From the NCBI GenBank assembly GCA_028706835.1, contig JAQTVL010000001.1, positions 1-42,666 on the forward strand: 42,666 nt of DNA, read 5' to 3'. The stretch comes from Phycisphaerae bacterium. Its GTDB lineage: Bacteria; Planctomycetota; Phycisphaerae; JAJVII01. Shown here piece after piece: positions 25,017 to 40,390 of the stretch (position 1 is the first letter of the stretch; each line of letters begins with the position of its first letter). The translations under genes and the position numbers were made by a program. Below the pieces are notes generated by a model, which ran no database searches, was not told the DNA's origin, and saw nothing but the letters and a program-made list of their open reading frames with translations.

Positions 25017-25053
25017 TGGTCATGTCCAGTGGTCAGTGGTCAGTGTCCAGTGG
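25017..25053. repeat. heptamer element, left arm only (GTCCAGTGGTCAGTGGTCAGTGTCCAGTGGTCAG)
   Basis: Fills the whole 37-nt spacer between the distal-tail-gene stop and the fibre ATG. Confidence 0.7.
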
Positions 25054-26007
25054 TCAGCGCCGCGGCTGGTTGCTCCGCGTGCGCGGCGGCCGGTATTCGT
25101 AGACGAGTCCCAGCCGCGAGAAATCCTTCTTGCCGTGGTTCTTGAACGTCAGCTTCTTAATCGCGTCGCCCTTCGAGTCCTTGATCTGTTTCTCGGTCAG
25201 CACCTGCCCGTTGTTGCCGAAGAAGAAGTTCCCCCCGCTGGACCATTTCACCTTGCCGTTGGCGTGGACATCGACGCGGACCTCTTCACCGGTCTGCTCG
25301 TCCGTCTCGAGGTAATATGGGCCGGCATCGAGACGTTCGTGTTTCCACCCCTCCGGGTTATACCCGAACTCGTACGAGACCTTGACGTAGGCGTAGTCGC
25401 CGTCGCGGACCTCCCGCCAGGTCACACGCAGGAGCTTCACCGTCTCCGCCGGGCAGCCGCCGAACGGGTATTGGTTCACCTTGCCGACATACTCCCCGAC
25501 GAGCTTCCAGTTGTAATACCCTTCGTTTCGCGTGGCGCGCACGGTGGAGTACGGCTCGCTGACCGCGAGCCCCTGCTCGAAGGGGCAGCCGACCGAGTTG
25601 GCGAAGAACGTGTCCTCCGTGTCCTTCAGTTTGAACTTCTCCTCGACCACCGTGTCGCCGTCCCATTCGACGGGCTCCAGGAGCGGGTTCGTTTGGCTCG
25701 CCTCCTGCTTGGCCGGCGAGGGTGGGGCGTTGGTGTCCCAGGTGATCTCGGCCTCGTAGAGCAAGGGCGCCACCATGCGGATCTTGCGCCGGCGCACGAA
25801 GGCCAGTTTGTTCGTGTGTCCGTTGTAGCTATAGTAGCTGCCCCAACGCGGAATCAGCGGCGAGAGGGCCACCGCGGCCCCGCTCACCGCGCCGGACGAG
25901 ACCTTGACGCCGTAGACGATCCCATAGGAGCGAAAGAGGATCCCATCCTCGATCCGCTCTTCGTCGGTCGGCGTCGCGTATTTCACCCAGACCCGCACAA
26001 CTCCCAT
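25054..26007 (-). CDS. putative distal tail / baseplate protein
   Basis: 317-aa ORF immediately downstream of the tape measure gene. Assigned by position only. Confidence 0.45.
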   Translation of the reverse strand: MGVVRVWVKYATPTDEERIEDGILFRSYGIVYGVKVSSGAVSGAAVALSPLIPRWGSYYSYNGHTNKLAFVRRRKIRMVAPLLYEAEITWDTNAPPSPAKQEASQTNPLLEPVEWDGDTVVEEKFKLKDTEDTFFANSVGCPFEQGLAVSEPYSTVRATRNEGYYNWKLVGEYVGKVNQYPFGGCPAETVKLLRVTWREVRDGDYAYVKVSYEFGYNPEGWKHERLDAGPYYLETDEQTGEEVRVDVHANGKVKWSSGGNFFFGNNGQVLTEKQIKDSKGDAIKKLTFKNHGKKDFSRLGLVYEYRPPRTRSNQPRR

Positions 26008-26010
26008 GCG

Positions 26011-27693
26011 TCAGTTCTCCAGCACTCGGACGAGCTGCGCCTGCGCCACCTCGCGTATCAGCTCGTCGATCTTGACCCCCAAGTCCGGAAACGACGCGCG
26101 CAAGATCGCGTTGGCCTCTTCCTGCAGTCGCTCACTGCGTTTCGGGCCGGCCCCGCCCACGGCGCCGGCCAGCAGCCGATAGGCTTCCTGCGAGCCGATC
26201 GCGCCGCCGGGGGCCAACCGCCCCTCGCCGCCGGGCCGTCGCGCCCGGCCGAGGGTCTCTTCGTAGGCCCCGGCGATCGCCGTGTCGCGGGCCCGGTCCG
26301 TGAGGTCCTTACGCTTGATTGCCTTGAGCCGGTCTTCGAACCGCTCCTGCGGCGTGCGGGCCTCCTGCTCCAGATCGAATTCCTCCTTTGTCTTGATGGC
26401 CTTCTCGTATTCCTCGATCCTGGCCGGATCAAGGTTTTTCGCCCACGCATCCGCCACGCGCGGATCGATCCCCATTCGGAATGCCTCGAGGTTCCTCTTG
26501 ATGCCGTTGGTCTCTTCCTCGATGGCCCGGTTTCCGGCGTTGGTCTCCGCCTTCCGCTTCGCCTCCCGATCGAACAGATTTGACCCCTCTCGCAGGGCAT
26601 CATTCCGGCGATTGATCGCGTCGACCTGCGAGCGGATGGCCGCGGTCTGCGTGTCGAATTGGTCCTTGGTGATGTCGCGCTTTTCGAAGGACTTTTTCAG
26701 ATCGGCGATTCGCCTGTCTCCCTCCCGGTCGGCGGCGGTCTTGGGTTCGTATTGGGGACGGCCCCAGTGCAGATCGATCCCGCTCCGGGAGACGTCCCTT
26801 TGCAGCCCGCCGAGTGCGGCCTTGGACTCGTTGTCCATTTCTTTGAGCGTTGCACCCAGGTCTTTGAAGTACTTCTCTACCGCTTGGCCCTTGATCGCGT
26901 CGAGCTGGGTGTTGCTCGCTTTGATCGCTGTCTCGTAGTTTTCCCTGGCCCGGTCGAGCCGTTTGGCCGGCGCCTCGACGTCGAAATGGGTCGTCGCGTA
27001 GAGCGCGCTCCTGGCCGGCGAGTCATAGGTCTTCTTCGCGGCGGAGTACTCCTGGGCCAGCGGGCGTAGTTCTTTCTGGGCCGCGGCCCGGGCCGCGTCG
27101 TACGCGGACAAGTCGAGGCTCCCCGCCGGGCGCGCTCTGGCACGCGAAAGCCCCAGAGCGCGGTCCACGAATCCCGCGTTCCAGGCCTCCATTCCGGGCG
27201 GGTGTCGGATCTCGTCCATGAGCGCGTCGACGTGACTCTTGGCCGCGGCGAAGGCCGTTGCCACGGTTCCGGCCGCGGTGGCGAGGCCGAGGACCGCCGG
27301 TCCGGCCTTGATGGCCAAAGAGCCGATTCCCTCGAGGACCTTGCCGATGGTCGAATCGGCGTAGGTCATCCGCATTTTCGCGCCGACTTGCTCCAGTTCG
27401 CCGGTCTGTTTGAGGGCTTTGTCAATCGTCTTCGCGGGAAGGTCGAAGGCCGCCGATGTTTTGACCGTCGCGCCGCTCTTCCCAGGGGCGAGGCGCCCGT
27501 CGCCGAAGATCTTCTCCGATCCCCGGCTGATTCCCTTGAGGAAGCTGTCGATATCGGCGCCGCGTCCCCGTGCCAGCCCGCTGGCGGCCTTTTCCAGCCG
27601 GCCAAACCGCGTCTCCGCCCGATCGAAGGGCGCATCGATCCCGGGCGCCGAGGCGGCGATCGTGATGTTGAGTTTCCCGACTGATTCACCCAT
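26011..27693 (-). CDS. tail tape measure protein
   Basis: 560 aa, Ala/Lys/Glu-rich and helical, with a hydrophobic GLATAAGTVATAFAAA segment. Lies downstream of the frameshifted chaperone pair. Confidence 0.7.
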   Translation of the reverse strand: MGESVGKLNITIAASAPGIDAPFDRAETRFGRLEKAASGLARGRGADIDSFLKGISRGSEKIFGDGRLAPGKSGATVKTSAAFDLPAKTIDKALKQTGELEQVGAKMRMTYADSTIGKVLEGIGSLAIKAGPAVLGLATAAGTVATAFAAAKSHVDALMDEIRHPPGMEAWNAGFVDRALGLSRARARPAGSLDLSAYDAARAAAQKELRPLAQEYSAAKKTYDSPARSALYATTHFDVEAPAKRLDRARENYETAIKASNTQLDAIKGQAVEKYFKDLGATLKEMDNESKAALGGLQRDVSRSGIDLHWGRPQYEPKTAADREGDRRIADLKKSFEKRDITKDQFDTQTAAIRSQVDAINRRNDALREGSNLFDREAKRKAETNAGNRAIEEETNGIKRNLEAFRMGIDPRVADAWAKNLDPARIEEYEKAIKTKEEFDLEQEARTPQERFEDRLKAIKRKDLTDRARDTAIAGAYEETLGRARRPGGEGRLAPGGAIGSQEAYRLLAGAVGGAGPKRSERLQEEANAILRASFPDLGVKIDELIREVAQAQLVRVLEN

Positions 27694-27696
27694 GAG

Positions 27697-27770
27697 CAGT
27701 GTCCAGTGGCTAGTGGTCAGTGGTCAGGTCCAGTGTTCAGTTTCTTTCTGGCCACCGGCCACTGGCCACT
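27697..27770. repeat. heptamer-built imperfect hairpin (AGTGKYC)n - T-rich loop - (CYGGCCA)n
   Basis: Arms 27697-27740 and 27748-27770. 19 Watson-Crick pairs out of 23 in a hand pairing. Confidence 0.75.
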
Positions 27771-27783
27771 CTCCCTTCCCCCC

Positions 27784-28451
27784 TCACCACCTCTTCAACC
27801 TCTCCCGAATCTCCTCATCGCTCATTCGCTCCGGTCCTTCCCAGCTCGCCCGCGGGATCTGCCACACGAGCGGCGTGTCCTCGGGCAGGCCGTGGAGCAC
27901 GGCCAGGACGACGCGCGCCAGGGCCAGCTCGAGCCGCTCGGTCCCCGAGGGGATCAGGCGGTAGACGATCCGCCAGCGCTGGAGCTGCCGGCAACTGAGC
28001 CCGGCGAGCAGTCCGTCGACGTCGGCGACGCCGAGGTCCCGGGCGAGCTCGTGGGCAAAGAGCAGGTCCGGGTCGTTTCGGAGTTTTTTTCCAGCTTCTC
28101 CTGGGCCCCGCGCGTCAGCGCGGCCCGCTCGAAGATCGCCTCGGCGATCGCGTCGACCGTGCCCGTGATGTCGCGCCCCAGGGCCTCGACGTCTTCCTCG
28201 TAGGTCTTCTTGTCGTAGAAGGCGGGCTTGCCTTCCTTGTCGCAGGCGCAGCGCACGACCCAGCGCGCGTAGGCGTTGGGGTTCTCGGGGTGGTCGGCCC
28301 GCTCCTGGTTGATGGCCGACTTCTCGGCCGCCGTGGGCGGCATCACGAAGATCCGCCCGTCGAGCTCCGGCCACCCGGGGGTCGGCACGGCGATCGGCTT
28401 GAACTCGTTGTGGCTCGCCACCGCGGCGAGCATCTCCTGTCGCAAGCTCAT
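27784..28451 (-). CDS. tail assembly chaperone -1 frameshift product (GT-like)
   Basis: After A_AAA_AAC the -1 frame reads KKLRNDPDLLFAHELARDLG... and stays open to 27784. Same-strand overlapping ORF 27784-28374. Confidence 0.55.
27954..28451 (-). CDS. tail assembly chaperone (G-like, zero-frame product)
   Basis: Lies between the major tail and tape measure genes. Contains the slippery heptamer at codons 121-123. Confidence 0.6.
   Translation of the reverse strand: MSLRQEMLAAVASHNEFKPIAVPTPGWPELDGRIFVMPPTAAEKSAINQERADHPENPNAYARWVVRCACDKEGKPAFYDKKTYEEDVEALGRDITGTVDAIAEAIFERAALTRGAQEKLEKNSETTRTCSLPTSSPGTSASPTSTDCSPGSVAGSSSAGGSSTA
28083..28089 (-). promoter_or_regulatory. -1 programmed ribosomal frameshift slippery heptamer A_AAA_AAC
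   Basis: Minus strand CTG GAA AAA AAC, giving X_XXY_YYZ in the zero frame. Confidence 0.6.
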
Positions 28452-28505
28452 GGGAACCCTCTCATTTCCATGGAAATACGTTTGGGGCAGCGGCCACTGC
28501 TCTGG

Positions 28506-28835
28506 TCACGCCGCCGCCTTGCGGAACTTGTAGGTCGTGGTGACCTGGCCTTCGAGGCTGCCTTCCTTGGGCGTCTCCTCGACGATCGCGCTGCCCTTGT
28601 CGTCCGTGGTCCCGTCCTTGTAGGTGATCGTGAGGTTCCCGACGTCGTGGACGTCGACGACGGGGTGCCCGTTGCACTTGATCGTCAGCGTCCATTTCGT
28701 CTTGCCCGGCTCGAATTCCTCGGCCGTCCAGCCGACGTCGATCAGGTCGCCGCTGGCCTGGTCGTTGACGCTGACGACCTCCCCCAGGTTGTGTCCGCCG
28801 TGGGTTGCCGTGGTCCCGAAAAATCGCTTGGCCAT
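28506..28835 (-). CDS. putative major tail (tube) protein
   Basis: 109 aa from ATG 28835 (MAKRFFG), preceded by GGAGA. Lies directly upstream of the chaperone pair. Small for a tube protein. Confidence 0.5.
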   Translation of the reverse strand: MAKRFFGTTATHGGHNLGEVVSVNDQASGDLIDVGWTAEEFEPGKTKWTLTIKCNGHPVVDVHDVGNLTITYKDGTTDDKGSAIVEETPKEGSLEGQVTTTYKFRKAAA

Positions 28836-28858
28836 GATAGGTCTCCGGTATTGAGTGG

Positions 28859-31483
28859 TCAGTTTTCCGCCAGGTATGACAGCGCCGTGAAGCAGGCGTG
28901 CTCCTCGCGGGCCGGCTTGGGCAGCCCGAGTCCCGACTCGCGCCCGGCGGGCGTGAAGGCCCAATCCCCGTGCTCGAACGATGCGGCGGGGGCCAGGTCG
29001 GCCAGATCTCGCGACTCGGCCTCCGTCGAGGCCCAGAATCCCACCCGCAGCGTGGCGCGCACGTAGCCGTCTCCGGCCGAGGGGGCCGTCTTTTCACGCT
29101 CGATCGTGATGGCGGGGACCTGATCGTCGGCGAGGAGGTGGATTTTCCGGGCCGGGAGGTCGCTCAGCCCGGGCAGGGCTGCCAGCACGGCGAGCAGTTC
29201 GTCCTCGGGGTCCGCGCCGGGGACGCCCGCGGGCAGCGTCACGAGCGTGCCGGTGTACTGCGTGCCGCTGGCCCCGTAGCCGACGTCGGCGAGGACCTCC
29301 TCCGCATCGGGCAGGACGACGGTCCCGCCGCCAGACACGAGCACCAGGTCGGCGTCGAGCGCGCCCGGCTGGGCCAGGAGCGTGGTCCCCTCGAGGATCG
29401 CTCCCGCCGACGCGAGCACTGCGGCCTTATCTCCGATCAGTTGGTGCGCTTCCCCCGAGTTGTACGCCGTCAGAATCATCGCCTCGAAATCAAAGGCGCC
29501 CGGTTGCGAAAGAATCGAATGCCCGAGCAAAATGTAGTCATCATTGGCGAGCACCGCGGCCTGGTCGGTCGCGAGCTGCGCGGCCGCCGCGGCGGCCTCC
29601 AGGGCCGCGACGTCGAGCGTGCCGTCCACACCGAGGATGCTCGTGTCGTCGCTGATCTTGTCGGCCTTAAGAGTTACGGCATAGAAATCCTGGTTGTATT
29701 GATTCTGGGCACCCATCGCGTAGTGGCTGTTGTTTTCCGCCAGGAAGTCATAGGTGCCAGCCTGTCCGAGTACGGTCGCATCGTCCTTGATCGATGCGGC
29801 AGCGGCGAGCACCACGGCCTGGTCGGCGGCGAGCTGCGCGGCCTTGCTCGTCGCCTCGGTCGGGTACGTGCCCGCAGAGCCGCCGGCATAGTTGTCGTGC
29901 CCGCTAACGACCCAGGCGGCGCCGACCACGCTCGATTTGAGAGTGTAGAGACTCAGATCGAGCGTACCCGCGTACTCCGCCCCGGTCGGCCCCCACGTGG
30001 CTTCCACCGTGGAGACATTCGCCTCCGCCGGCCAGACCGCGGCAGCCAGCGGGTCGTAGGTGCCCTCGTGGCTGCCGTCGCCGTCATCCCAGGTCACACC
30101 GTCCTCGACCTCGCCGACGGATAGGCCAGTCGTCGCGTGGTAGTTGGTCCCGTCGAAGATGCCGGTCCCGTGGTAGACTCCTGCGCTCAAGAGGATGCCC
30201 GTCGCATGGTAGCCGACGTACTCGTCGAGGATGCCGGTCGCGCCGCCATACACGCCGTCGTCGTCCTGGATGCCCCACGCGTGATAGACGTAGGACTCGT
30301 CGAGCAGTCCAGCTCCCTGGTTCACGCCATCAGCGTCGACGCACCCGACCAGCGTGCCCACCGTGGCGTCAACGGATACGCCCTTGCGGACGTTTGACGC
30401 GACGGGAACGTAGCACGTCCCGACCGTGGCATCGACGTTGACCGCGTTGCGCACGTCCGCCGCCGCCGGAATGTAGGCCAGCCCGGTGGTAGTCCCGACA
30501 TTCACCGCATTGCGCACGTCGGCCGGCGCCGGCACATAACAGAGGCCGGTCATCGTCCCGTTGGCGTAGGTCACGGCGTGCCGCACGTCGGACGTAGTCG
30601 GATAATCCCCGCCTCCCCCGCCCCCCTCGTATGTGCCTTCGGAAGCCACGTCGTAGGCAACGCCGTTCTTCACGTCCGCCTCGGCGGGCATGTCGATCGG
30701 CCAGTCCATCGCCCAACTGATCCGGCCATCTATCGCGGCTGCCCCCGTACCGGCAGCGCCTCCGTTGCCAACATAAGTTGGCGACCACTCGTCCGGATAG
30801 TAAGCAGTGGCACCGGCGGCGCCATCACTGCCGGCAGCACCTTGGACGATACTGGCCCCCGGCCATTTCACCCAGACCAAGCCCCCGTCCAACGCAAATC
30901 CACCCGAGCCGCCGTTTCCTCCCGCGCCGCCATCGTACCCGCAGTTCTCGTCGGCGTATCCGCTGCCGCCGTTTCCCCCATTGCCGCTCGTTCCGTTCGT
31001 CAGCGTGCCGTGCACGCGGACGAGCGTGTAGGGATCGGACGATATCGCATGCCCGCCGGGCGACCCTCCGCTGCCGCCACTTCCCGGTCCGCCGGAGCTC
31101 GCCCCCTCTCCATCCGTGCCGTTGGCACCGTTACCGCCGGTGACGTGCCCCAGAATCTCGAAGGCGACTCGCCGGCCGGTGAACGCGATCACGTTGCGTC
31201 CCGTGATCGCCGTCACGTTGCCGTGGATGATGATGCAGCAGTTCTCGGCCGAGTAGTTCACCGTGACCCCGTCGCTGGTTGTCGAGGAATCGACGGTCAA
31301 GCTCCCGTCCAGCTCGAAGGCCGCGGTGATATCGAGCGAGCCCTCGCTAATGCACAGATCGCAATGCAGCACGCCTGCCGGCGCGGTGCAGGTGTGATGC
31401 ACGTAGCCCGTCCCCGACGTCGGCACCGATCCGCCCCATGTGGCGGCGTCGAGGAGCGATCCATTCTGGACCGTGTCGGCCAT
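28859..31483 (-). CDS. Gly-rich fibre-like protein with C-terminal DUF3168/tail-terminator-like domain
   Basis: 874 aa. GGxGG/NGG tracts. Five '..ADV[RK]N[AG]V...' repeats. Three QLxxDxAxVL...QxGxxD repeats. The last ~120 aa (ELLAVLAALPGLSDL...ATLRVGFWASTEAESRDLA) resemble tail terminator proteins. Confidence 0.6.
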   Translation of the reverse strand: MADTVQNGSLLDAATWGGSVPTSGTGYVHHTCTAPAGVLHCDLCISEGSLDITAAFELDGSLTVDSSTTSDGVTVNYSAENCCIIIHGNVTAITGRNVIAFTGRRVAFEILGHVTGGNGANGTDGEGASSGGPGSGGSGGSPGGHAISSDPYTLVRVHGTLTNGTSGNGGNGGSGYADENCGYDGGAGGNGGSGGFALDGGLVWVKWPGASIVQGAAGSDGAAGATAYYPDEWSPTYVGNGGAAGTGAAAIDGRISWAMDWPIDMPAEADVKNGVAYDVASEGTYEGGGGGGDYPTTSDVRHAVTYANGTMTGLCYVPAPADVRNAVNVGTTTGLAYIPAAADVRNAVNVDATVGTCYVPVASNVRKGVSVDATVGTLVGCVDADGVNQGAGLLDESYVYHAWGIQDDDGVYGGATGILDEYVGYHATGILLSAGVYHGTGIFDGTNYHATTGLSVGEVEDGVTWDDGDGSHEGTYDPLAAAVWPAEANVSTVEATWGPTGAEYAGTLDLSLYTLKSSVVGAAWVVSGHDNYAGGSAGTYPTEATSKAAQLAADQAVVLAAAASIKDDATVLGQAGTYDFLAENNSHYAMGAQNQYNQDFYAVTLKADKISDDTSILGVDGTLDVAALEAAAAAAQLATDQAAVLANDDYILLGHSILSQPGAFDFEAMILTAYNSGEAHQLIGDKAAVLASAGAILEGTTLLAQPGALDADLVLVSGGGTVVLPDAEEVLADVGYGASGTQYTGTLVTLPAGVPGADPEDELLAVLAALPGLSDLPARKIHLLADDQVPAITIEREKTAPSAGDGYVRATLRVGFWASTEAESRDLADLAPAASFEHGDWAFTPAGRESGLGLPKPAREEHACFTALSYLAEN

Positions 31484-31492
31484 CGCTTATTT

Positions 31493-31527
31493 CCTTGGAG
31501 TGCGGCGAGGCAATCGCCGCTTTCTTT
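31493..31527 (+). terminator. hairpin GCGGCGA-GGCAA-TCGCCGC + TTTCTTT (plus-sense terminator-like); copy 1 of a duplicated element
   Basis: Read directly. On the minus strand the same hairpin sits just upstream of the SD AAGGAAA of the 874-aa gene. Confidence 0.35.
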
Positions 31528-31536
31528 GGCCCGTCT

Positions 31537-31920: not shown

Positions 31921-31923
31921 GAG

Positions 31924-31998
31924 CAGTGTCCTGTGGTCAGTGGCCAGTGTTCAGTGTTCAGTTTCCTTCTGGCCACTGGCCACCGGCCACTGGCCACT
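31924..31998. repeat. heptamer-built imperfect hairpin (same family as 27697-27770)
   Basis: CAGTGTC CTGTGGT CAGTGGC CAGTGTT CAGTGTT CAG - TTTCCTT - CTGGCCA CTGGCCA CCGGCCA CTGGCCA CT. Confidence 0.75.
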
Positions 31999-32002
31999 CT
32001 CC

Positions 32003-32593
32003 TCACGCGTCCCCCCAGACCTTCCTCAGCGCGGCGCGGATCTCGCTGGCCACCAGGTCCTCGGCCAGGCCCTTGTTGGCCTGGTAGGCCGGCGCCAAGA
32101 ACGGCTTGGCCGGCGCCGCGGCGGCCTTGCGCCCGATGACGTCCCCGCTCTGGTCCAGGAGGATTTTTTTCTTCTTGATCTCGACGGCCTTGCGGCCTTT
32201 CTCGATCAGGTGGGCGATACGCGTCGGCTTGCGGATCTCGTCGGGGCGCACGCCCGCGGCGAGTTGTTTCTTGGTCATCCGCCGGATCCGCCCCACGCCT
32301 CCCTTCTTCCCGCCGCGCGGCGCCAGTTGGCGTACGGCCGCGTCGAATCCCCGCCGCGGCCCGATGACCACGCCCATCCGCGTGTGCTTGGTAAAGACCC
32401 GGTAACCGATCGACTTTCGCAGGGTCCCCGTCTCGACGGCCACGTGGCTCTTGGCGGCCTGCGAGATGACGCTCCCGATCTTGCGCATGGCCGATCGCAG
32501 CGCGGCCTTGAGCGTCGACCCCCGCACTTGCTCGAGGGCCTGGAGGGTGATCCTCTGGCCCGACAACTCGGCTTTGATGGCGATGGTGGGCAT
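32003..32593 (-). CDS. HK97 gp10-family tail-completion/neck protein
   Basis: ...VAVETGTLRKSIGYRV... matches the gp10-family 'DTG-LR-SI' motif. Lies in the connector region. Confidence 0.55.
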   Translation of the reverse strand: MPTIAIKAELSGQRITLQALEQVRGSTLKAALRSAMRKIGSVISQAAKSHVAVETGTLRKSIGYRVFTKHTRMGVVIGPRRGFDAAVRQLAPRGGKKGGVGRIRRMTKKQLAAGVRPDEIRKPTRIAHLIEKGRKAVEIKKKKILLDQSGDVIGRKAAAAPAKPFLAPAYQANKGLAEDLVASEIRAALRKVWGDA

Positions 32594-32601
32594 GGGCGGA
32601 T

Positions 32602-32664
32602 TGGTCTTTGGTCTTGGGTCTTTGGTCTTGGGTCTTTGGTCCTAAGGCCCAAGACCCAAGACCA
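32602..32664. repeat. heptamer-built hairpin, second flavour (GGTCTTK)n / (CCCAAGA)n
   Basis: TGGTCTT TGGTCTT GGGTCTT TGGTCTT GGGTCTT TGGTCC-TAA-GGCCCAAGACCCAAGACCA. Confidence 0.75.
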
Positions 32665-32670
32665 CTCTCT

Positions 32671-33024
32671 TCAATGCTTGACATGCACCCGAAACATCTT
32701 CCCGCCGGCGATCTCCTCGTAGACGAATCCATCTTTCTCGGTCGGGCGGACGGTATAGGTCTTCTCCGTTCCCTCCTCGGTCAGGGTGATCGTGTCGCCG
32801 GCGGCGGGCGCCGCGTGGAGGCCGCCGAGCAGGAGCTCGTCGGCCACGATCAGCTCGTCGTGGTACTGGCCCTGGGGGTCGCCCAGGTCCGTCAGGCCGG
32901 CGATCTGCGTCCGGTCGCGCACGGCGACCAGATCGCAGGTCAGCTCGCCGCGCGCGTACGTCGCATCCCGCCCGGCCGCGGCCTGCATTTGCGCGGCGAA
33001 CCAATCCAAGCCCTCGCGGTACAC
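32671..33024 (-). CDS. putative head-tail connector protein
   Basis: 117 aa from GTG 33024, 6 nt after AGGAGG. Assigned by position between the decoration and gp10-like genes. The longer ORF to 33069 would run through the hairpin element. Confidence 0.45.
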   Translation of the reverse strand: MYREGLDWFAAQMQAAAGRDATYARGELTCDLVAVRDRTQIAGLTDLGDPQGQYHDELIVADELLLGGLHAAPAAGDTITLTEEGTEKTYTVRPTEKDGFVYEEIAGGKMFRVHVKH

Positions 33025-33035
33025 GGCAGCCTCCT

Positions 33036-33084
33036 GCGTGGTTCGTGGCTCCTTCGCGCCACGCGCCACGAGCCACGCGCCACG
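33036..33084. repeat. hairpin, third flavour (CGTGGTTCGTGGC ... GCCACGAGCCACG plus extra CCACG units)
   Basis: Arms 33037-33049 and 33065-33077 pair with one T:G position. Confidence 0.7.
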
Positions 33085-33091
33085 ATCTTCC

Positions 33092-34000
33092 TCACGCGTT
33101 TGTCGGGATCGACCTCAGAATCAGGCTGAAGGCCGGCATGTTCGAGTTGGCCCCCTGGGTCACCGTGGCGGTGACCGCCTCGCCGGCGGTGAGGATCGAA
33201 TAGGTCCCGCTGAGCGCCCCGAGGTCCTCGTAGTCGCTGGTGGGCGGCTGAGTCTCGGTGTTGTACGTCTTGGTGACGATCGTGTTCCCGGCCAGGTCCT
33301 TGATGGTCACCACGCAGGTGTTGTCGTCGTCGATCCCGGCCGGCGCCCCTTCGGTGAGGATTCCCACCGAGGTCAGGGTGCAGGCCCGCGGGTGGACGAA
33401 GATCGGCCGGGCGGCGATATCCACCCCGGCCCCCAGGTCCTCGACGTGAGCGATGACGATCTGCTCCTGGTGAGCCGCGTTAAGGGTCGCGGCGCCGTTG
33501 GCGGCCAGGGTCACGTCCCCGCTCACCGCCACCTCCTCGTACTTCGAGCCGTCGGCCACGAGGATCCGGCCGGCCGTGTGGGCCACGGTGCCCACGTCCG
33601 ACAGGTCGTCGGTGCCCATGGTGTCCGCGTCGTTGGCCGAGCGGAGAAGGATCTCGACGGTCCCGACGGTGGTCCCGGCGGTCTCGAGCGTCCAGCCGGC
33701 AAAGGTGTTGCCGCTAGCGGTGCTCGTCAGGGCCCCGCTCAGGGCGGTCCCGCCCACCGGGCTGCCGTCGGCATCCCAATAGACGGCGGCGCCGACCGAG
33801 CTCAAATTGCTGGAATCCTTGGGGAACTTCATGCGCCCATTGATTGCCAGCGAGCCCTTGACGTTGGCCGCGATGTCGAGCTTGGCCACGCCGACGAGCT
33901 TCCCTTGCACGACGACGTCGCCGGCGGTGACCGCCGAGCCCGGGGTGTGGGGGATCACCTCGGCGCCGGTGGCGACGAATTCGACAGGAGTCTGTGCCAT
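33092..34000 (-). CDS. DUF2190-type head decoration/cement protein with C-terminal extension
   Basis: N-terminus ...AVTAGDVVVQGKLVGVAKLDIAANVKGSLAINGRMKFPK...VGAAVYWD matches the DUF2190 pattern. Immediately follows the capsid gene. Confidence 0.6.
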   Translation of the reverse strand: MAQTPVEFVATGAEVIPHTPGSAVTAGDVVVQGKLVGVAKLDIAANVKGSLAINGRMKFPKDSSNLSSVGAAVYWDADGSPVGGTALSGALTSTASGNTFAGWTLETAGTTVGTVEILLRSANDADTMGTDDLSDVGTVAHTAGRILVADGSKYEEVAVSGDVTLAANGAATLNAAHQEQIVIAHVEDLGAGVDIAARPIFVHPRACTLTSVGILTEGAPAGIDDDNTCVVTIKDLAGNTIVTKTYNTETQPPTSDYEDLGALSGTYSILTAGEAVTATVTQGANSNMPAFSLILRSIPTNA

Positions 34001-34047
34001 AACTTGGTTTCCTCTCTCAAGTAGGTCCCGCCTGCCGGGCGGGATCG

Positions 34048-34068
34048 GGGTTCAGGGTTCAGGGTTCA
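34048..34068. repeat. (GGGTTCA)x3 tandem heptamers, next to a TCCCGCC/GGCGGGA hairpin (34026-34044)
   Basis: Read directly in the capsid-decoration spacer. Confidence 0.7.
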
Positions 34069-34092
34069 CGATCGGCACTCGGTACCCGATAG

Positions 34093-36162
34093 CTACGCCG
34101 TCGCTCCGGTGCTCTTGACCGCGCCTCGGCAATCCGCCTGGCAGACGCCGAAGTCGAGGTAGCCCCGCCAGGCGCGTCCCAGGTATTGGCCCGAGAGCTC
34201 CACCTCTTCGACTACCGGCTCGGCGACGCCGTTGAGATAGGCTGCGCCGAAGGCGGCCACGTCGGCCGGATCGCCCCACAGGTACCAGGCGATGTCGGAG
34301 GCCGAGGCGTGGAAGCTCGTATTGCCCAGGTAGGGCGAGGCCTGCGGCTCGTAGCGCCCGGCGTAGCGGTTCCGGTTGGGCACCTTCTCCGCGGTCGCCG
34401 CGCCGCCCGTATTGAGGTTGGTCGACTGGTAGAGCTCGTCGGCCGTTTCGTGCAGGGCCGGCGGCACGACCAGGTAGCGGCCGCTGACGAGGATCGGGTC
34501 CCCCTGGTCGTCGGTCTGCTCCTCGAGGGCCTTGGCGGCCAGGCCCAGGCCCACGCTCCCGAGGACCTTGGTGATCAGGTTCGAGTTGTTGCTGTGGAAG
34601 AAGTTGCCCGTGTTGGCATGGACCAGGGTCCAGAAGAGCCGCTCCTTCATCAGCACCGCCCCTCGGCCGATCATCCGCGGGATCTCGGCAAAGGCGCCCA
34701 GGTCGTCGTTGACCTCCATCTGCCGCGTGAGGCCGAAGTAGCGGCCGTAGGTCTTGACGGCATACGTGTAGGTCGCCTCGTCGACAGTGGCGTGTTCCAG
34801 CTCGCCGTCGGGTGCGACCTCGCGCATGGTGAAATCGCCGCTCAGGCGATACCCGGTATGCGTCTTGAAGTCGCTGGCGCTCAGTCGCTTGCAGAGCAGG
34901 TCGACCAGCGCCGGCACGGCCGTATAGGCCTCGAGCATCACCTTGTGCCCGACGTTGGAGAGGATCCCCGGCAGGCTCACCGTCGAGAAGGCGGCCTTCA
35001 CGAGCTCGGCCGACGACGCGTCGAACTGGGGGACCTGGTGGCCGTCGATCGCGCAGCAGATCCGCATCAGTTCCTTGAAGCGGATCCGGCGGAACTTGTG
35101 GGCCTGCTCGAGGACCTGGTCGCCGTAGGCCTTCACCAGGCGGCCCTCGTCCGCCATCACGGCCAGGAGGATCCCCGCCTCCAAGACCTTCTGGTCGGGT
35201 GCCGGGGCCGAGCCGTGGATCGCCGGGCCCTTGGGGCGCTCGGCGCGGAGGACCTCGAGCTCGGCCGCCTCGGCGCTGGCGCCGTCGGCGATGGCCTTGG
35301 CCTCGATCTCCGGGTGCCGGCCGGCGCAGGCCTTGCGGATCCGCGCCACGCGATCGGTCTCGGCCGCCTGGCCCTTGCGGAATTCGGCGAGGGCCTCCGC
35401 GGCGATCGCATGCACGTCCGGCTTGGGGCTGGCCTCCGCGGTCCCGGCGGGCGGCCTCTGGGCCGCGTCGAAGGCCGCCCTGAGGGGCACGAGCTGCTGT
35501 TCGCTCAGGGTCTCGGGGGTGTCATAGCCGTTCGCCTTGAGCCACTCGGAAAACTTGGGATCCATGTTTCGCTCCTTGGTTGATGCGGCCCCCGCGGCCG
35601 CGACGTTGACATTGGTCCGCGCGTCGGCCCCGACGGCCACGAAAGAGACCTCGAAGAGGGTCGCCGCGCGAATGATTTGCACCGGGCCCTGGAACGTCCG
35701 GCCGTTGGCCTTGGCCGACGCGCCCTGTTCGACGTACTCGACCTTCTCCGGCCGGGCGCCGATCGAGGCCTTCCAGGGAAAGCCCCGCCGCGAGGCCACG
35801 AGGACCTCCTGGGCGGCCGGGCCGCCGCCGGAGATCACGCCGGCGAGCTTCACGCGCTGCGCGGAGATCTCCACCTGGGAATGGCCGACGATCTGTCCCA
35901 AGTCGTGGTTGAGCAGGTTCGGAATCTCGTCGGCCGCCGCCTTCAGGCCGGCCAGGTCGACGACGATCGGAGACATATAGGCCGAGACGCGCATCGGCCC
36001 GCCCGTGTAGGCCACCATCGAGAACCGCTTGGGCGCGTCCGGATCGCCTTCGGCCGCCTGGATCCAGTCGACCGGCTCGGGCGCCAGCTCGATCGCCGCC
36101 GGCGGCGCCGAACAGGTCAGTAGGGTGGGCCGATCGCAGCGAGTCCCATTTTTGCTTCTCAT
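34093..36162 (-). CDS. fused prohead protease (S78/HK97-type) - scaffold-like linker - major capsid protein
   Basis: N-terminus ...LLNHDLGQIVGH...LFEVSFVAVGADARTNV (protease). A coiled Ala/Glu-rich middle section. The C-terminal ~330 aa are capsid-like. ATGA overlap with the portal stop. Confidence 0.65.
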   Translation of the reverse strand: MRSKNGTRCDRPTLLTCSAPPAAIELAPEPVDWIQAAEGDPDAPKRFSMVAYTGGPMRVSAYMSPIVVDLAGLKAAADEIPNLLNHDLGQIVGHSQVEISAQRVKLAGVISGGGPAAQEVLVASRRGFPWKASIGARPEKVEYVEQGASAKANGRTFQGPVQIIRAATLFEVSFVAVGADARTNVNVAAAGAASTKERNMDPKFSEWLKANGYDTPETLSEQQLVPLRAAFDAAQRPPAGTAEASPKPDVHAIAAEALAEFRKGQAAETDRVARIRKACAGRHPEIEAKAIADGASAEAAELEVLRAERPKGPAIHGSAPAPDQKVLEAGILLAVMADEGRLVKAYGDQVLEQAHKFRRIRFKELMRICCAIDGHQVPQFDASSAELVKAAFSTVSLPGILSNVGHKVMLEAYTAVPALVDLLCKRLSASDFKTHTGYRLSGDFTMREVAPDGELEHATVDEATYTYAVKTYGRYFGLTRQMEVNDDLGAFAEIPRMIGRGAVLMKERLFWTLVHANTGNFFHSNNSNLITKVLGSVGLGLAAKALEEQTDDQGDPILVSGRYLVVPPALHETADELYQSTNLNTGGAATAEKVPNRNRYAGRYEPQASPYLGNTSFHASASDIAWYLWGDPADVAAFGAAYLNGVAEPVVEEVELSGQYLGRAWRGYLDFGVCQADCRGAVKSTGATA

Positions 36163-37709
36163 TCGGTCGGCTCCTCCTCCGGGGAATCTGCGTCCTCTGC
36201 GGATGACTCTTCTCCACTCGGCCGAGGCTTTTGGTCTTTCCCTGGCGAACCCTGCTCCGCGCCGAGCAGTTTGTCTGCCAGCCGCTTCCTGTACTGGGCC
36301 AGGGTCAGTCCCAACCCCTGCGCCGCCTTGCTCTGCTCGGTCTCGTAGTCCTGGCCCTTGCGTGCGAACATCGTGGGGATGGAGAGCTGGCCCGACTCGA
36401 GTTCCACCCGCGAGGCGTCGGCCGCCTGCAGGGGATTGATGTCTTCGCTGATCTCATCCCAAAAGACCCAAACGGTCCACTGCGCGAAAGGGGGCAGCTC
36501 CGGCAGGTAACCCGCGACCAAGCGCGCCTCCAGGTACCAGCTCGCCACGATCCGGTAGACGATCGGGTCCCACTCGAGCACCCGCTCGACGATTCCGGCC
36601 CGGGCATAGCCCCTTCTATCCAGCTTGCCCGAGGCGAAGTTGTAATCCTTCGAGTCGCCGGCTCCGACCGCGTAGGGCATCATCACGCTCGAAAAGGCCT
36701 CGGCCAGGATCTCCCGCTTGAACTCGCCGTAGGTGGTCGTCGGCTGCTCGCTCTTGATCTGCCCGAGCTGGTAGCCCTCGGGCAGCACGGTGACCATGCG
36801 CTGGGCCAACTCAAAAACATCAAAGGCCTGGTCGCTGTCATCGGTGGCCTGACCCCAGGCGGCCCCCGGCGGCTGATTGGTCTGGATCACGGCCGCGAAG
36901 TCGGCGGCCGTCTCGGCCGCGGCCAGCACGGCCAGCGTGTATCGCCGGAGCTGCGAGAAGAGCGGCAACGCCGGCGTGATCTCCGGCACTCCCCGGTGCT
37001 GACCCGACCGGTCCTGCCGAAAGACGTGGATCACGTCGCGCGCCTCGTAGCTGTCGGCCTTGCCCCAGTTCACGGCGGTTCCCCAGCCGTCACCCGGGTG
37101 TGCGCGGAGGATGTCGTACTCCAGCGGCTCGCCATCCTCGTCGAAGCGGATCCCGTCGACCGCGTTTTTCTGTTGTTCGGTGTAATCCGGGCTCGACAAC
37201 TGGTCGCACTCGATCGTGCGCAGGCCCAGCTTGACGGGCACGGGCAGCTTCGGCCGGTTCACCAGCAGCCCCAGCCCCTCCCCGTTGAAGCATTTTTCTT
37301 TGCGGAGCAATCGGAGGCGCTTGGCCAGGCCCGCGGCGAGCATCCACTGGGAGAGCTCTTTTTCGATCCGTTGGTCCGTCTGCTTGCCGGCCCCGGTGAG
37401 GATCTGCACGCGCGGCCCGGTGCCGACGACGTCGTTGGCCAGGGTCTCGACCATCGAGCGGCAATAGGAGTTGTTGTCGACCTCGTAGCGCGCCCGCGAT
37501 CGCAGCTTGCGCAGGATCTCCGGCCGGTTGGCGGCGTCGGCCGAGTAGTAGTCGGCGGCCGCCCAATGCCGCATGTTCTCGTCGGTCGTCTGCGCCGCGT
37601 CGTAGCGCGCCAAGATCCGCCGCCAGCTCGCCCGCCCCGGCGGCGCCGGCAGGCGCTGCGCCCGCGTGGCGGTGAAGGGTTTTCCGTATTGGTCGAGCAG
37701 TGCGGGCAT
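36159..37709 (-). CDS. portal protein, lambda (gpB) family
   Basis: Starts at ATG 37709 (MPALLDQYGKPF). ...RYDAAQTTDENMRHWAAAD...RSRARYEVDNNSY... is typical of lambda-type portals. The upstream 30 codons of the ORF are the hairpin element. Confidence 0.75.
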   Translation of the reverse strand: MPALLDQYGKPFTATRAQRLPAPPGRASWRRILARYDAAQTTDENMRHWAAADYYSADAANRPEILRKLRSRARYEVDNNSYCRSMVETLANDVVGTGPRVQILTGAGKQTDQRIEKELSQWMLAAGLAKRLRLLRKEKCFNGEGLGLLVNRPKLPVPVKLGLRTIECDQLSSPDYTEQQKNAVDGIRFDEDGEPLEYDILRAHPGDGWGTAVNWGKADSYEARDVIHVFRQDRSGQHRGVPEITPALPLFSQLRRYTLAVLAAAETAADFAAVIQTNQPPGAAWGQATDDSDQAFDVFELAQRMVTVLPEGYQLGQIKSEQPTTTYGEFKREILAEAFSSVMMPYAVGAGDSKDYNFASGKLDRRGYARAGIVERVLEWDPIVYRIVASWYLEARLVAGYLPELPPFAQWTVWVFWDEISEDINPLQAADASRVELESGQLSIPTMFARKGQDYETEQSKAAQGLGLTLAQYRKRLADKLLGAEQGSPGKDQKPRPSGEESSAEDADSPEEEPTE

Positions 37710-37713
37710 GAAG

Positions 37714-37789
37714 CAGTGGTCAGTGGCCGGTGTCCGGTGTTTAGTTGCCGGTGTTCCTTCTGGCCACCGGCCACTGGCCACTGGCCACT
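37714..37789. repeat. heptamer-built imperfect hairpin (family 1)
   Basis: Left arm 37714-37759. Right arm CTGGCCA CCGGCCA CTGGCCA CTGGCCA CT at 37760-37789, followed by TTTTGTTT. Confidence 0.75.
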
Positions 37790-37795
37790 TTTGTT

Positions 37796-37981
37796 TCACA
37801 CGGTTCCCCCGGGGCGGATGCGGCCGATGCGGATCGGCAGGCCGGTGGCGGTGCTCGCCGCGGCCGCCTTCTTCGCAACGTACTGGTCGTACTCGATCTG
37901 CTCCCGCAGCGAATGCTGCTCGACGACGTTTCCGTCGACGGCGACGCGTACGGGCGCGGCGGCATTTTCCTCAAGCGACAT
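37796..37981 (-). CDS. gpW-like head-tail joining protein
   Basis: 61 aa immediately upstream of the portal. VRVAVDGNVVEQHSLREQIEY...IRIGRIRPGG resembles lambda W in size, position and pattern. Confidence 0.5.
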   Translation of the reverse strand: MSLEENAAAPVRVAVDGNVVEQHSLREQIEYDQYVAKKAAAASTATGLPIRIGRIRPGGTV

Positions 37982-37987
37982 GCGGCG

Positions 37988-38057
37988 AGTGTCCAGTGGT
38001 TAGTGGTCAGTGGCCGGTGATCGATTTTCTGGCCAGTGGCCACCGGCCACCGGCACT
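37988..38057. repeat. heptamer-built imperfect hairpin (family 1)
   Basis: AGTGTCC AGTGGTT AGTGGTC AGTGGCC GGTG - ATCGATTTT - CTGGCCA GTGGCCA CCGGCCA CCGGCACT. Confidence 0.75.
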
Positions 38058-38209
38058 GCTCAATAAAGACGGCCGCGCCGGGTCACCTCGGCGGCAACCG
38101 GGCAAGTTCCGGCGCGGCCCGTCCCAGGCTGTCTCGCCTTATACCGCGCGGCCCGGCCGATTCCGGCGAACAATCGCTCCGGCGGAAAAAATCGTTACAC
38201 CGGTAGAGC

Positions 38210-38238
38210 GCCCCGCCCCGGGAGCGGGGCCTTTATTT
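38210..38238 (+). terminator. plus-sense terminator-like hairpin GCCCCGC-CCCGGGA-GCGGGGC + CTTTATTT
   Basis: Read directly. No plus-strand gene lies upstream of it in the window. Confidence 0.35.
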
Positions 38239-38252
38239 CCACAGAAATGCCC

Positions 38253-38283
38253 CCTTGGAGTGCGGCGATTCATCGCCGCTTTC
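38253..38283 (+). terminator. copy 2 of CCTTGGAGTGCGGCGA..TCGCCGCTTTC hairpin element
   Basis: Stem GCGGCGA/TCGCCGC, loop TTCA, tail TTTCGA. The 16-nt left flank is identical to 31493-31508. Confidence 0.35.
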
Positions 38284-38342
38284 GACCCGCCGCGCCTTCG
38301 CCCTGGCGTGAGGAATGGAGCCCGGAGTAGAATAAGCCCTCA

Positions 38343-38365
38343 ACAGGAGGCGGCTTCGGCCGACG
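38343..38365 (+). repeat. 23-bp repeat ACAGGAGGCGGCTTCGGCCGACG (SD + CGGC-UUCG-GCCG hairpin), copy 1
   Basis: Identical to 38525-38547. AGGAGG lies 19 nt before ATG 38370. Confidence 0.8.
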
Positions 38366-38369
38366 TGAA

Positions 38370-38555
38370 ATGCGATTTGACGACGAGGAGACCGACGCCG
38401 TGCGGCGACTGAGAGACTCCGATCTGGGGTTCTCGGCCCAGAACAGGGCCCTCTTTGATCTGGTTCCGGCCGAAACCATCCGGCGAATAGTCAGAGAGGA
38501 AACGCGCCGGCGGGCTCTCCGACGACAGGAGGCGGCTTCGGCCGACGAATCATGA
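38370..38555 (+). CDS. hypothetical 61-aa protein (plus strand)
   Basis: Preceded by the repeat-borne SD. The opposite-strand ORF is Arg/Ser-rich junk. The stop overlaps the next ATG (ATGA). Confidence 0.45.
   Translation: MRFDDEETDAVRRLRDSDLGFSAQNRALFDLVPAETIRRIVREETRRRALRRQEAASADES
38525..38547 (+). repeat. 23-bp repeat, copy 2
   Basis: Same SD-to-ATG spacing (19 nt) before ATG 38552. Confidence 0.8.
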
Positions 38556-38770
38556 ACGGAAGAAACATTCCGAGAGACTGGGCGGTTAGGTTCTTTCGCA
38601 ACGCCAAAAGCGCCAAGGTGTTTCGCGATGGTGGTGGGGTTCGCGTCCACGAGGACTGGAATGCCGACCAGATCGTGGCATGGCTCGAGCAGCACGATGT
38701 CGCGTGCCACGAATCCGGCACGCTGATCGGCGCGGACGACGACGGGGCGCTCTTCATCGAGTTAGAGTGA
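38552..38770 (+). CDS. hypothetical 72-aa protein (plus strand)
   Basis: Ordinary globular composition. Third-position G+C is high in the second half by hand inspection. Confidence 0.5.
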   Translation: MNGRNIPRDWAVRFFRNAKSAKVFRDGGGVRVHEDWNADQIVAWLEQHDVACHESGTLIGADDDGALFIELE

Positions 38771-38869
38771 CCAGCGTCTCCGTCGCAGCCGTGCCTTGCG
38801 AAGGGCCTTACGCGATCGATTCCGCTTCTTCCCCGCCCGCCGCGCGTGCCGCCGGTGATAGTGACCCAT
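38762..38869 (-). CDS. possible 35-aa highly basic peptide
   Basis: MGHYHRRHARRAGKKRNRSRKALRKARLRRRRWSL. Its ATG overlaps the stop of the upstream gene (ATGA). Could be fortuitous in high-GC DNA. Confidence 0.2.
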   Translation of the reverse strand: MGHYHRRHARRAGKKRNRSRKALRKARLRRRRWSL

Positions 38870-39105
38870 CACGGAAATTCTGATTCCGGGACAAAGGCGG
38901 TGAAGAACTCGCGAGTCTCGCTCCCCACCGGCAAGAGCTTGTGGGGATCGTCTTCGGCGCAGAACTCGAGGAGGCGCGGCCGGCCGTCGGCATCGCGATC
39001 GCGGACCTCGAACAGCGCCAGGCGGTAGACCGCGCTCGAGCCATTCCCCCGCTTGACGCGGAGGCGTGGCAACACCGACACCGAGACGTCCCAGGCCGTC
39101 CTCAT
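38869..39105 (-). CDS. hypothetical protein
   Basis: 78-aa ORF downstream of a family-1 hairpin. Confidence 0.45.
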   Translation of the reverse strand: MRTAWDVSVSVLPRLRVKRGNGSSAVYRLALFEVRDRDADGRPRLLEFCAEDDPHKLLPVGSETREFFTAFVPESEFP

Positions 39106-39120
39106 CTGGCATCACCCATG

Positions 39121-39193
39121 GTGTCCAGTGTCCAGTGTTCAGTGGCCGGTGTCCAGTTGTTTGTCTGGCCACCGGCCACTGGCCACTGCCCAC
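39121..39193. repeat. heptamer-built imperfect hairpin (family 1)
   Basis: GTGTCC AGTGTCC AGTGTTC AGTGGCC GGTGTCC AG - TTGTTTGT - CTGGCCA CCGGCCA CTGGCCA CTGCCCACT. Confidence 0.75.
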
Positions 39194-40361: not shown

Positions 40362-40371
40362 AGGTCGTGAT

Positions 40372-40390
40372 GCGTGGTTCGTGGCTCGTG
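40372..40390. repeat. half element GCGTGGTTCGTGGCTCGTG (third flavour, left arm only)
   Basis: Matches 33036-33051. Fills the terminase-to-zinc-ribbon spacer. Confidence 0.6.

Follow-up and report, generated by a model that had tools for sequence, protein, structure and literature searches.

The stretch of DNA considered here, hereafter the window, comprises positions 1 to 42,666 of contig JAQTVL010000001.1 from the Phycisphaerae bacterium assembly GCA_028706835.1 and carries the genes of a phage, in whose late operon several intergenic spacers are occupied by hairpins built of heptanucleotide repeats. The G+C content is about 66% over this 42.7-kb window, codon-position GC marks the minus strand as the coding strand for essentially all of its genes, and a phage head-tail block was identified in it by Pfam. 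A preliminary description of the same DNA had reported heptamer-built imperfect hairpins at six sites filling late-operon spacers; the sequence is as described there, and pattern counts, Tandem Repeats Finder (TRF) and folding agree. Five of the sites (A1 to A5) are homologous hairpins of about 75 nt each, which on the plus strand consist of four to six CAGTGKY units, a T-rich loop and then three to four CTGGCCA or CCGGCCA units, and the sixth (A6) is an array with one arm only. We find that these elements form a local family within a widespread class of intergenic repeats, which is also present in essential operons of soil bacteria and in unrelated phages; the notion that the hairpins are a regulator site private to the window phage is not supported.

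The concentration of these repeats at the six sites is far beyond expectation. With up to one mismatch, GGCCACYGGCCAC matches the window 19 times against 0.44 expected and CAGTGKYCAGTG 32 times against 0.49 expected, every match of either pattern falling inside the six reported sites. Further, TRF returns 12 period-7 arrays of 3.0-5.9 copies in the window, where 0.11 per window would be expected from simulated sequence of equal dinucleotide content. A1 to A5 can be aligned over about 75 nt (column identity 69%), the consensus stem having 29 pairs, and a covariance model built from the alignment recovers exactly these five in the window, at 81-98 bits. The loop that they have in common, GGCCAGAARGAAAC, is absent from all other fetched loci and IMG/VR contigs, and the junction sequence of the family, CCACTGCTYCATG, occurs elsewhere only once, in the viral contig L010. 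As loop and junction are hardly found elsewhere, the copies are best read as paralogues that have spread or been homogenised inside the window phage.

All of the elements and late genes discussed below lie on the minus strand unless otherwise stated. A1 (27697-27770; 85.9 bits with the covariance model) occupies the 90-nt spacer 27694-27783, which separates the tail-chaperone G/T stop (27784) from the ATG (27693) of a tape-measure-like gene. We read 27954-28451 and the frame ending at 27784 as a tail-chaperone G/T frameshift pair from their position and ORF translations, and 26011-27693 as the tape-measure-like gene on the same grounds; a Pfam search of the latter gave no match. The two overlapping frames at 27784-28451, directly upstream of this gene, resemble a G/GT programmed frameshift. 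A2 (31924-31998; 98.4 bits) fills the 82-nt spacer from the stop of the gp10-like gene (32003-32593, Pfam) to the ATG of g31537 (31920), and pairing between its flanks, GCGUGAG and CUCAUGC, joins the stop to the start. A3 (37714-37789), recognised like A4 and A5 by its fold and the covariance model, lies in the 86-nt spacer between the stop (37796) of a small ORF and the ATG (37709) of the lambda-type portal gene (36159-37709, Pfam), where the relatives of this phage have about 11 nt. The small ORF, with its ATG at 37981, is labelled gpW-like from its position only. A4 (37988-38057) stands in the leader of this gpW-like ORF with no cistron directly upstream, immediately 3' of a terminator-like GC stem on the sense strand (about 38066-38125) that is followed by UCUUUAUU. 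Beyond A4 there is an 887-nt gap in the string of minus-strand genes (38058-38868), with a plausible plus-strand ORF of 72 aa at 38552-38770.

A5 (39121-39193) begins at the stop codon of g39194 (UGA followed by GUGGGCAG) and stops 15 nt short of the probable ATG (39105). The start had earlier been placed at 39119, which opens an ORF of five codons; codon-position GC and the gene call on an identical contig (L131) favour 39105. That contig is the only other one with the window phage and, being 100% identical, carries no information on variation in copy number. A6 (25017-25056), recognised from sequence as a direct array with the sense units (TGRMCAC)5, runs from the g25054 stop codon, which is its first unit, to the ATG (25016) of a 1654-aa gene. 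The junction before the start codon, previously taken to be conserved, has the exact form CCACTGGACACTGCTC-ATG only in A1, differs by one mismatch in A2 and reads CACTGACCACTGCTTC-ATG in A3.

The family as first counted was also incomplete: the six sites are all present, but heptamer repeats at 32597-32665, 33040-33084, 34048-34068, 40362-40390 and 16103-16131 had been missed. The first four of these are further late-operon spacers that carry arrays or hairpins with other units (B to E). B (32597-32665; TRF and fold) is a hairpin of TTGGTCT and CCAAGAC units, in the sense direction GUGGUCUUGG, loop and (ACCMAAG)n, between the stop of the head-tail joining gene (32671-33024, Pfam) and the gp10-like ATG (32593). 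C (33040-33084; TRF, fold and a weak covariance-model match) is a hairpin whose units are GTGGCTC and CGCGCCA, also given as GUGGCGC and GCCACGA, between the stop of the cement-protein gene (33092-34000, Pfam) and the head-tail joining gene, and is followed by a normal GGAGG Shine-Dalgarno (SD) sequence and a GTG start (33024). D (40362-40390; TRF) is a direct array of CACGAGC, CACGAAC, CACGCAU and CACGACC that fills the spacer from the stop of the large terminase gene (TerL, 40391-42562, Pfam) to the SD-less ATG of a 62-aa ORF with CxxC motifs (zinc-ribbon-like). E (34048-34068; TRF), a direct array (UGAACCC)3, lies in the spacer between the capsid (MCP) and cement-protein genes and is followed by a small GC hairpin and an ordinary SD. 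The fifth, G (16103-16131; TRF; four GGCTTGG-type units), lies in the early region and is the sole heptamer array outside the 25-40 kb block; four GGTACCC-type units at 39324-39351 (TRF) appear to lie inside the 3' part of ORF 39194-39778.

Altogether, ten of the 18 late gene junctions carry heptamer arrays, with at least five different units among them; four others overlap or are at most 3 nt apart, and the remaining four are ordinary spacers of 23-54 nt with an SD. In array-free spacers, single heptamer-like fragments are found right after stops, at 28836-28858 (TGACCACTC) and 28452-28505 (TGACCAGAGCAGTGGCC), and may be relics or seeds of arrays. GA-rich SD-like runs stand directly 5' of A1 (27775-27783, GGGAGAG), A2 (31999-32002, GGAGAG) and B (32666-32670, AGAGAG), and similar purine runs precede arrays in the loci L004, L010 and L022. 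In A1 and A2, a GUG 6 nt downstream of the purine run opens a mini-ORF of 10-12 codons that ends at a UGA in the 3' arm.

The distribution of SD sequences raises the question of a translational device. There is no SD before the ATG that follows A1 to A6, B and D, and one is present in the four ordinary spacers and after C and E. On such an account, the C/A-rich 3' arm would be an SD-independent landing or standby site masked by the G-rich 5' arm, and the stem would bring stop to start for re-initiation, with a coupling like that of shunt or mycobacterial interspersed repetitive unit (MIRU) elements. One or two heptamers beside the ATG remain unpaired; in A1 to A3 the (C)UCA that directly precedes the AUG is paired with the stop (UGAG or UGAA), which makes coupling attractive for these three; SD-like runs stand ahead of the 5' arm in A1, A2 and B; and GUG is available in every frame of the 5' arm and UGA in the 3' arm, the spacers holding 21 stops on the sense strand versus eight on the antisense strand. 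A precedent exists in the TAACTGA heptamers just upstream of SD-less starts, which have been proposed as translational elements (PMC4679880). Like the TAACTGA type (MacGregor 2015), A6, D and the 3' arms of A1 to A4 and B end 0-9 nt before an SD-less ATG, though they have only ACUGA in common with TAACTGA. However, a thermodynamic model with the ribosome on the stop leaves the start region unexposed, its unpaired probability going from 0.42-0.53 to 0.42-0.58. Further, the bacterial arrays discussed below sit near the stop and not the start, which lies a median of about 26 nt away and is often preceded by a normal SD, and A4 has no upstream ORF. We therefore regard a translational device as decidedly unlikely to be the principal role.

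All five complete hairpins fold much better than shuffled sequences on either strand (z -3.5 to -8.4), as a check proposed in the preliminary description would have it; on the sense strand, the core free energies are -32 to -47 kcal/mol (z -3.5 to -6.9). A6 has no inverted arm and no significant fold relative to shuffles. The pairing proposed for A1, with 19 Watson-Crick pairs in 23 positions, agrees with the minimum-free-energy fold of the plus strand, which has 19 Watson-Crick and four G:U pairs. Covariation is limited to two compensatory pairs among the 29 in A1 to A5, and five copies are too few for this to support or reject the structure. At the gathering score, Rfam places no family at the elements, its sole match in the window being a tRNA. 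In A1, A3, A4 and B, the core is more stable on the plus strand than on the mRNA strand, by about 10 kcal/mol; the two are equal in A2 and C, and in A5 the plus strand is the weaker. The plus-strand folds also contain more G:U pairs. The strand asymmetry claimed earlier is hence real in A1, A3 and A4 and does not extend to A2 and A5. As a general property it was rejected, being seen in four of the seven window elements; among 20 co-directional cases in genomes, the sense strand is the weaker in ten and the stronger in eight.

These folds bear directly on whether the elements are terminators, pause sites or insulators, acting either on the sense strand, where antitermination would be needed, or against antisense transcripts. 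The stems are long and GC-rich, the plus-strand fold is the stronger in A1, A3, A4 and B, A3 has a T-run after its plus-strand hairpin that a terminator scan flagged on the antisense strand, and ten of the bacterial arrays lie in convergent-gene contexts. On the sense strand, however, no U-tract follows the hairpins (tails CACUGCUCAUG and similar), so that they lack the direct U-tract on the transcribed strand that, with a GC-rich hairpin, defines an intrinsic terminator; the plus-strand T-run is seen in only one of seven elements; the asymmetry is not general; and equivalent hairpins stand between essential ribosomal-protein genes of an operon. Such a role is thus most improbable, and the suggestion of insulation from antisense transcription is weak, with its T-run at A3 only. 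The exclusion of both a classical mRNA-strand terminator and a clustered regularly interspaced short palindromic repeat (CRISPR) array had been sound: in place of CRISPR repeats of 23-50 nt with unique spacers of similar length, the units are contiguous 7-mers without spacers.

The key to the nature of these elements lies outside the window. The right-arm pattern CTGGCCACYGGCCACYGGCCAC matches ten IMG/VR contigs and at least 120 loci in bacterial genomes, which we compared as 8-kb excerpts (L011-L130). Among the loci listed, about 45 belong to Acidobacteriota and about 20 to Planctomycetota, with others from Verrucomicrobiota, Chloroflexota and further phyla, and several metagenome-assembled genomes (MAGs) have three to four matches each among those listed. 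The architecture common to the bacterial loci is (GTGGCCA)n-loop-(CTGGCCA)n, the inverted (GTGGCCA)n arm being upstream in 51 of the matches listed and the order reversed in four. In the fetched loci, the covariance model from A1 to A5 gives 116 matches at E<0.01, the best loci including Planctomycetales, Isosphaeraceae and Pirellulales MAGs (L092, L055 and L063, respectively), an Acidobacteriota MAG with four copies (L089) and a viral contig with at least five (L005). A scan of viral contigs with a 15-nt B-type pattern proved too unspecific to use.

Two of these loci are particularly instructive. The Acidobacteriota locus L089 (CAVUTP010000025.1) is a ribosomal-protein spc operon, with S8, L6, L18, S5 and L14 identified by Pfam and L24 assigned from its N-terminal sequence and a KOW-motif match. 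At L089:1040-1840, GTGGCCA/CACTGAC hairpins stand between S8 and L6 and between L6 and L18, with further ones upstream; they start 8 nt and 10-14 nt past the stop codons, and the layout of stop, (GUGGCCA)n, loop, (CACUGAC)n, about 15 nt and AUG is as in the window phage. Hairpins between ribosomal-protein genes must be transcribed through and tolerated inside essential operons. The viral contig L005 (IMGVR_UViG_3300047586_000215) is an unrelated HK97-type phage, whose capsid, portal and terminase families differ from those of the window phage. It too has at least five hairpins in the spacers of its structural operon (L005:1000-6600), oriented as in the window phage, and one array directly abuts an ATG.

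The relatives of the window phage present the opposite picture. Those recovered in viral and metagenome scans have a portal identity of 55-57%, a capsid identity of at most 43% and an identical gene order, but are nearly without period-7 arrays, with eight in 324 kb, six of them in the single contig L156, as against 347 in 868 kb of the pattern-positive genome loci. As the relatives lack the elements that bacteria and an unrelated phage possess, the elements appear to follow host lineage or cell environment and not phage ancestry, which argues against both a phage-specific operator and an efficient terminator. In L156 (Ga0101941_1000707), complementary arrays at 10563-10594 (AGGCTGG-type) and 10733-10762 (CTCCAGT-type), 140 nt apart, lie in frame inside the linker of the capsid ORF and bracket an internal ATG; they are absent in relatives that are 75-92% identical, and both arms appear, from this comparison, to have been gained together.

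The same distribution bears on the idea, raised in the preliminary description, of binding sites for a phage regulator analogous to stoperators, or more broadly for a sequence-specific phage or host protein on DNA or RNA. The units are repeated and orientation-specific and contain the palindrome TGGCCA, and a heptamer-binding protein has been proposed as a speculation for similar repeats (PMC4679880; bioRxiv 10.1101/2022.06.06.494920). Against this, identical sequence recurs across many phyla, in a ribosomal-protein operon and in unrelated phages, and is missing in relatives; at least five unrelated units occupy equivalent positions in one phage and dozens occur within single genomes; units spaced 7 bp apart do not keep in phase with the DNA helix; and the elements are intercistronic and not at promoters, the sole promoter-like site in a scan of 15.6 kb (28862-28834) coinciding with no A to E element. 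We consider protein-binding arrays very unlikely.

The pattern-positive loci also reveal regularities of the wider class. Period 7 prevails, with 415 arrays versus 117 for the next period, and the loci contain dozens of different heptamer units, with up to 13 arrays per 8 kb. Gene context was assigned by the codon-position GC rule; a classifier based on stop-free frames misclassified the window itself and was dropped. Resolved contexts are predominantly co-directional (41), with ten convergent and three divergent cases. Read in sense, 34 of 51 arrays begin between -4 and +10 nt from the upstream stop, whose last base is often part of the array, and the distances to the next start are more widely spread. 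Of 48 clear inverted heptamer pairs, 45 have the G-rich arm on the 5' side and the C-rich arm on the 3' side (45:3), as do 14 of 17 outside the GGCCACT family; by symmetry, this polarity is valid on both strands. It leaves the arm adjoining the downstream start G-poor and free of start codons or SD-like runs. TGACCA, which contains UGA, is found on the sense strand 39 times versus eight for TGGTCA; as this bias amounts to a coding-strand G-to-A change, opposite to the usual deamination bias, we read it as selection on the transcript. A-rich sense loops, considered as a further general rule, were weakly supported (12 versus 6) and set aside. The preliminary description had named a generic REP-like (repetitive extragenic palindromic) repeat, scattered through the host chromosome without positional bias, as the finding that would overturn it; this is largely what is seen, the repeats being widespread in bacterial genomes, but not entirely, as both position and strand are biased.

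The best explanation of these observations is that A1 to A6 are a local, internally homogenised family, that B to E are sister families and that all of them belong to a widespread class of tandem-heptanucleotide intergenic repeats. The 7-nt units would expand through replication slippage, and since the A unit adds a single base to the 6-bp palindrome TGGCCA, inverting a direct array changes only one position in seven, so that inverted arms are easily generated. The class is probably typical of certain bacterial lineages, mainly Acidobacteriota and Planctomycetota, whose phages would acquire the same kind of repeat. As to what the elements do, the roles in RNA processing or stability or as translation-start structures suggested at the outset are compatible with the data, and this is the direction we favour. 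More specifically, we tentatively prefer a REP-like, co-transcribed intercistronic RNA hairpin, grown from slippage-prone heptanucleotide repeats, that might serve as a 3' cap or a processing site. REP elements stabilise upstream mRNA, and the hairpins of T7 and Correia elements are cut by RNase III. Late-operon transcription would pass through the elements, each of which would form in the mRNA a stem of 23-29 bp starting 0-14 nt past the upstream stop codon. The stem may shield the upstream cistron from 3'-5' exonucleases by capping its 3' end, or provide a site for double-strand-specific cleavage, and the polycistronic message would thereby be split into segments differing in stability; the 3' arm, kept G-poor, start-codon-free and UGA-rich, would be a harmless SD-free leader for the next cistron. 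A cap or processing site best fits the adjacency to stop codons, the enrichment at the 3' sides of genes and the rarity in divergent spacers.

Several observations pull away from the cap or processing site. The compensatory changes are few (two of 29 pairs in A1 to A5), with C.A or G.A mismatches at many pairs of the sense strand; in four of seven elements, folding favours the antisense strand over the mRNA by about 10 kcal/mol; a cap at A4 would have no cistron upstream to protect; an inverted arm is missing from A6, D and E; and close relatives function without any such element. The prevalence of period 7 whatever the unit (415 versus 117), when a hairpin needs no 7-nt periodicity, points to a mutational origin, and any effect of the hairpins on 3' ends, cleavage or half-life is a prediction.

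As the main alternative, the elements could be a non-adaptive by-product, with polymerase slippage in certain hosts producing the arrays, snap-back or template switching at palindromic cores producing the arms and selection only removing harmful versions, such as start codons or SD-like runs by real starts and intrusions into ORFs, with no function for the phage. Besides the predominance of period 7 and the weak covariation, many unrelated units coexist in single genomes and in the window phage; the arrays reach right up to the stop codon and spare nothing but the ribosome-binding region, as if expanding until constrained; relatives without arrays have compact junctions; and arm polarity and TGACCA bias can both be read as purifying filters. 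In the literature, slippage is held responsible for the surplus of heptameric repeats (PMC4679880 citing Mrazek 2007; PMC4692102). Yet the phage bears about 600 nt of arrays in ten of 18 late junctions and only one array outside the 25-40 kb block; the loop and junction sequences common to A1 to A5 indicate that whole elements were spread or homogenised; slippage alone explains poorly how two complementary arms arose together 140 nt apart in the coding linker of L156; and orientation relative to the genes is identical in two unrelated phages. On balance, a pure by-product seems to us somewhat unlikely. At the other extreme, the tandem-heptamer hairpins could be functional intercistronic punctuation in Acidobacteriota, Planctomycetota and their phages, combining a 3' cap that begins at the stop codon with a block of UGA stops effective in any frame and a leader for restarting without an SD, all read by a conserved host factor or the ribosome. 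Phages would then copy the host version to plug into its post-transcriptional control, and such reading would have left its mark in the fixed G-arm-first polarity and the TGACCA bias of the sense strand. This stronger form of the functional proposal we hold to be quite improbable.

The remaining features of the window place the phage itself. The capsid ORF (34093-36162) has a Pfam capsid-domain match at residues 389-684; its N-terminal third is without a Pfam match, and we read it from context as protease-like. An internal start-like site in this ORF (MDPKFSEW, about residue 199) is conserved in relatives and suggests nested products. A megablast of the late region against a phage database gave no match, tblastn with TerL returned as its sole matches relatives at no more than 29% identity, and by these comparisons the window phage is without a close cultured relative. 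Two tRNA-Met genes with a CAT anticodon lie on the minus strand at 12528-12601 and 12794-12868. At 9706-9766, there is a perfect 21-bp tandem repeat, GTGTCCTTCAGGGACACCCCC, in 2.9 copies with an inverted repeat within each unit, which may be an operator or iteron. Lastly, a 63-bp repeat in two copies of 75% identity (30433-30560) is found inside the 874-aa ORF 28859-31483.

Among known repeats, the closest are the heptanucleotide simple sequence repeats (SSRs), namely the cyanobacterial STRR sequences, Mrazek's long SSRs, the GGGAATC repeats of Xanthomonas and Nostoc, some of them inverted (PMC4692102), and the TAACTGA repeats of Beggiatoaceae just upstream of SD-less starts, including those in ribosomal-protein operons (PMC4679880). 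Heptamer repeats are also reported near Nostoc start codons (bioRxiv 10.1101/2022.06.06.494920), and heptamers are reported to be over-represented among bacterial simple repeats, Mrazek's long SSRs being those cited in PMC4679880 and PMC4692102. Like these, the arrays in the window have at least three tandem 7-nt copies, are mainly intergenic, occur with many units per genome and vary in abundance with lineage; inverted pairs able to form stem-loops, positions beside SD-less starts, presence in ribosomal-protein operons and a proposed origin by slippage are further common ground. Unlike them, the main unit here is TGGCCA+S in high-GC Acidobacteriota, Planctomycetota and phages, the typical form is a two-armed hairpin of fixed polarity near the upstream stop, and the phage copies are paralogous elements of about 75 nt. 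In the literature searched, we found no description of a TGGCCA-based hairpin, of its occurrence in Acidobacteriota and Planctomycetota or their phages or of the polarity and strand rules.

In position, the class resembles REP/BIME or Correia elements, but its members fall outside their sequence definitions. The REP/BIME elements of enterobacteria, including REPINs, are likewise imperfect palindromes, multi-copy, co-transcribed and near stops in intercistronic or 3' regions, the co-transcription of the present elements being deduced from their position inside operons; however, the present elements lack the conserved GTAG or CGTC head of the 20-40-bp REP palindromes, and their stems are 23-29 bp of tandem 7-mers, very variable in length and sequence. 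Correia/NEMIS and ERIC elements, of about 70-150 nt with long inverted arms and dispersed between genes, are transcribed into mRNA hairpins cut by RNases, which alters the stability of neighbouring cistrons. In contrast to them, the present elements show no target-site duplication, their arms are internally repetitive, and these can arise in situ at two sites, as in L156. T7-type RNase III sites parallel the window in that about ten similar hairpins without terminator function lie between the genes of long phage transcripts; they differ in being phage-specific, with a defined internal loop and no tandem repeats. A long, nearly continuous stem is predicted for the window hairpins. Mycobacterial MIRUs are intercistronic tandem repeats within operons, whose short ORFs run up against the neighbouring stop and start codons and presumably couple translation, but they have 40-100-bp units and no hairpins; for the elements described here, mini-ORFs of the kind noted above, with GUG from the 5' arm and UGA from the 3' arm, are a formal possibility only. 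The stoperators of cluster A mycobacteriophages are also numerous, orientation-specific short sites in short phage intergenic regions, yet they are single 13-14-bp sites of one consensus, phage-specific and bound by the phage's own repressor, while the elements described here are tandem and inverted 7-mers with several units, common to bacterial chromosomes.

The question of what heptameric repeats do dates back to 1990, and there is now a defined hairpin with rules of stop adjacency, arm polarity and sense-strand bias, whose presence in essential operons and two unrelated phages makes the question more tractable. For annotation, these observations counsel caution, as an intergenic hairpin of about 75 nt in a phage operon need not be a terminator or an operator, and the start beside it may be wrongly called, as with 39119 versus 39105. 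Moreover, as the elements track host lineage and not phage ancestry, they could help predict the hosts of uncultured phages.

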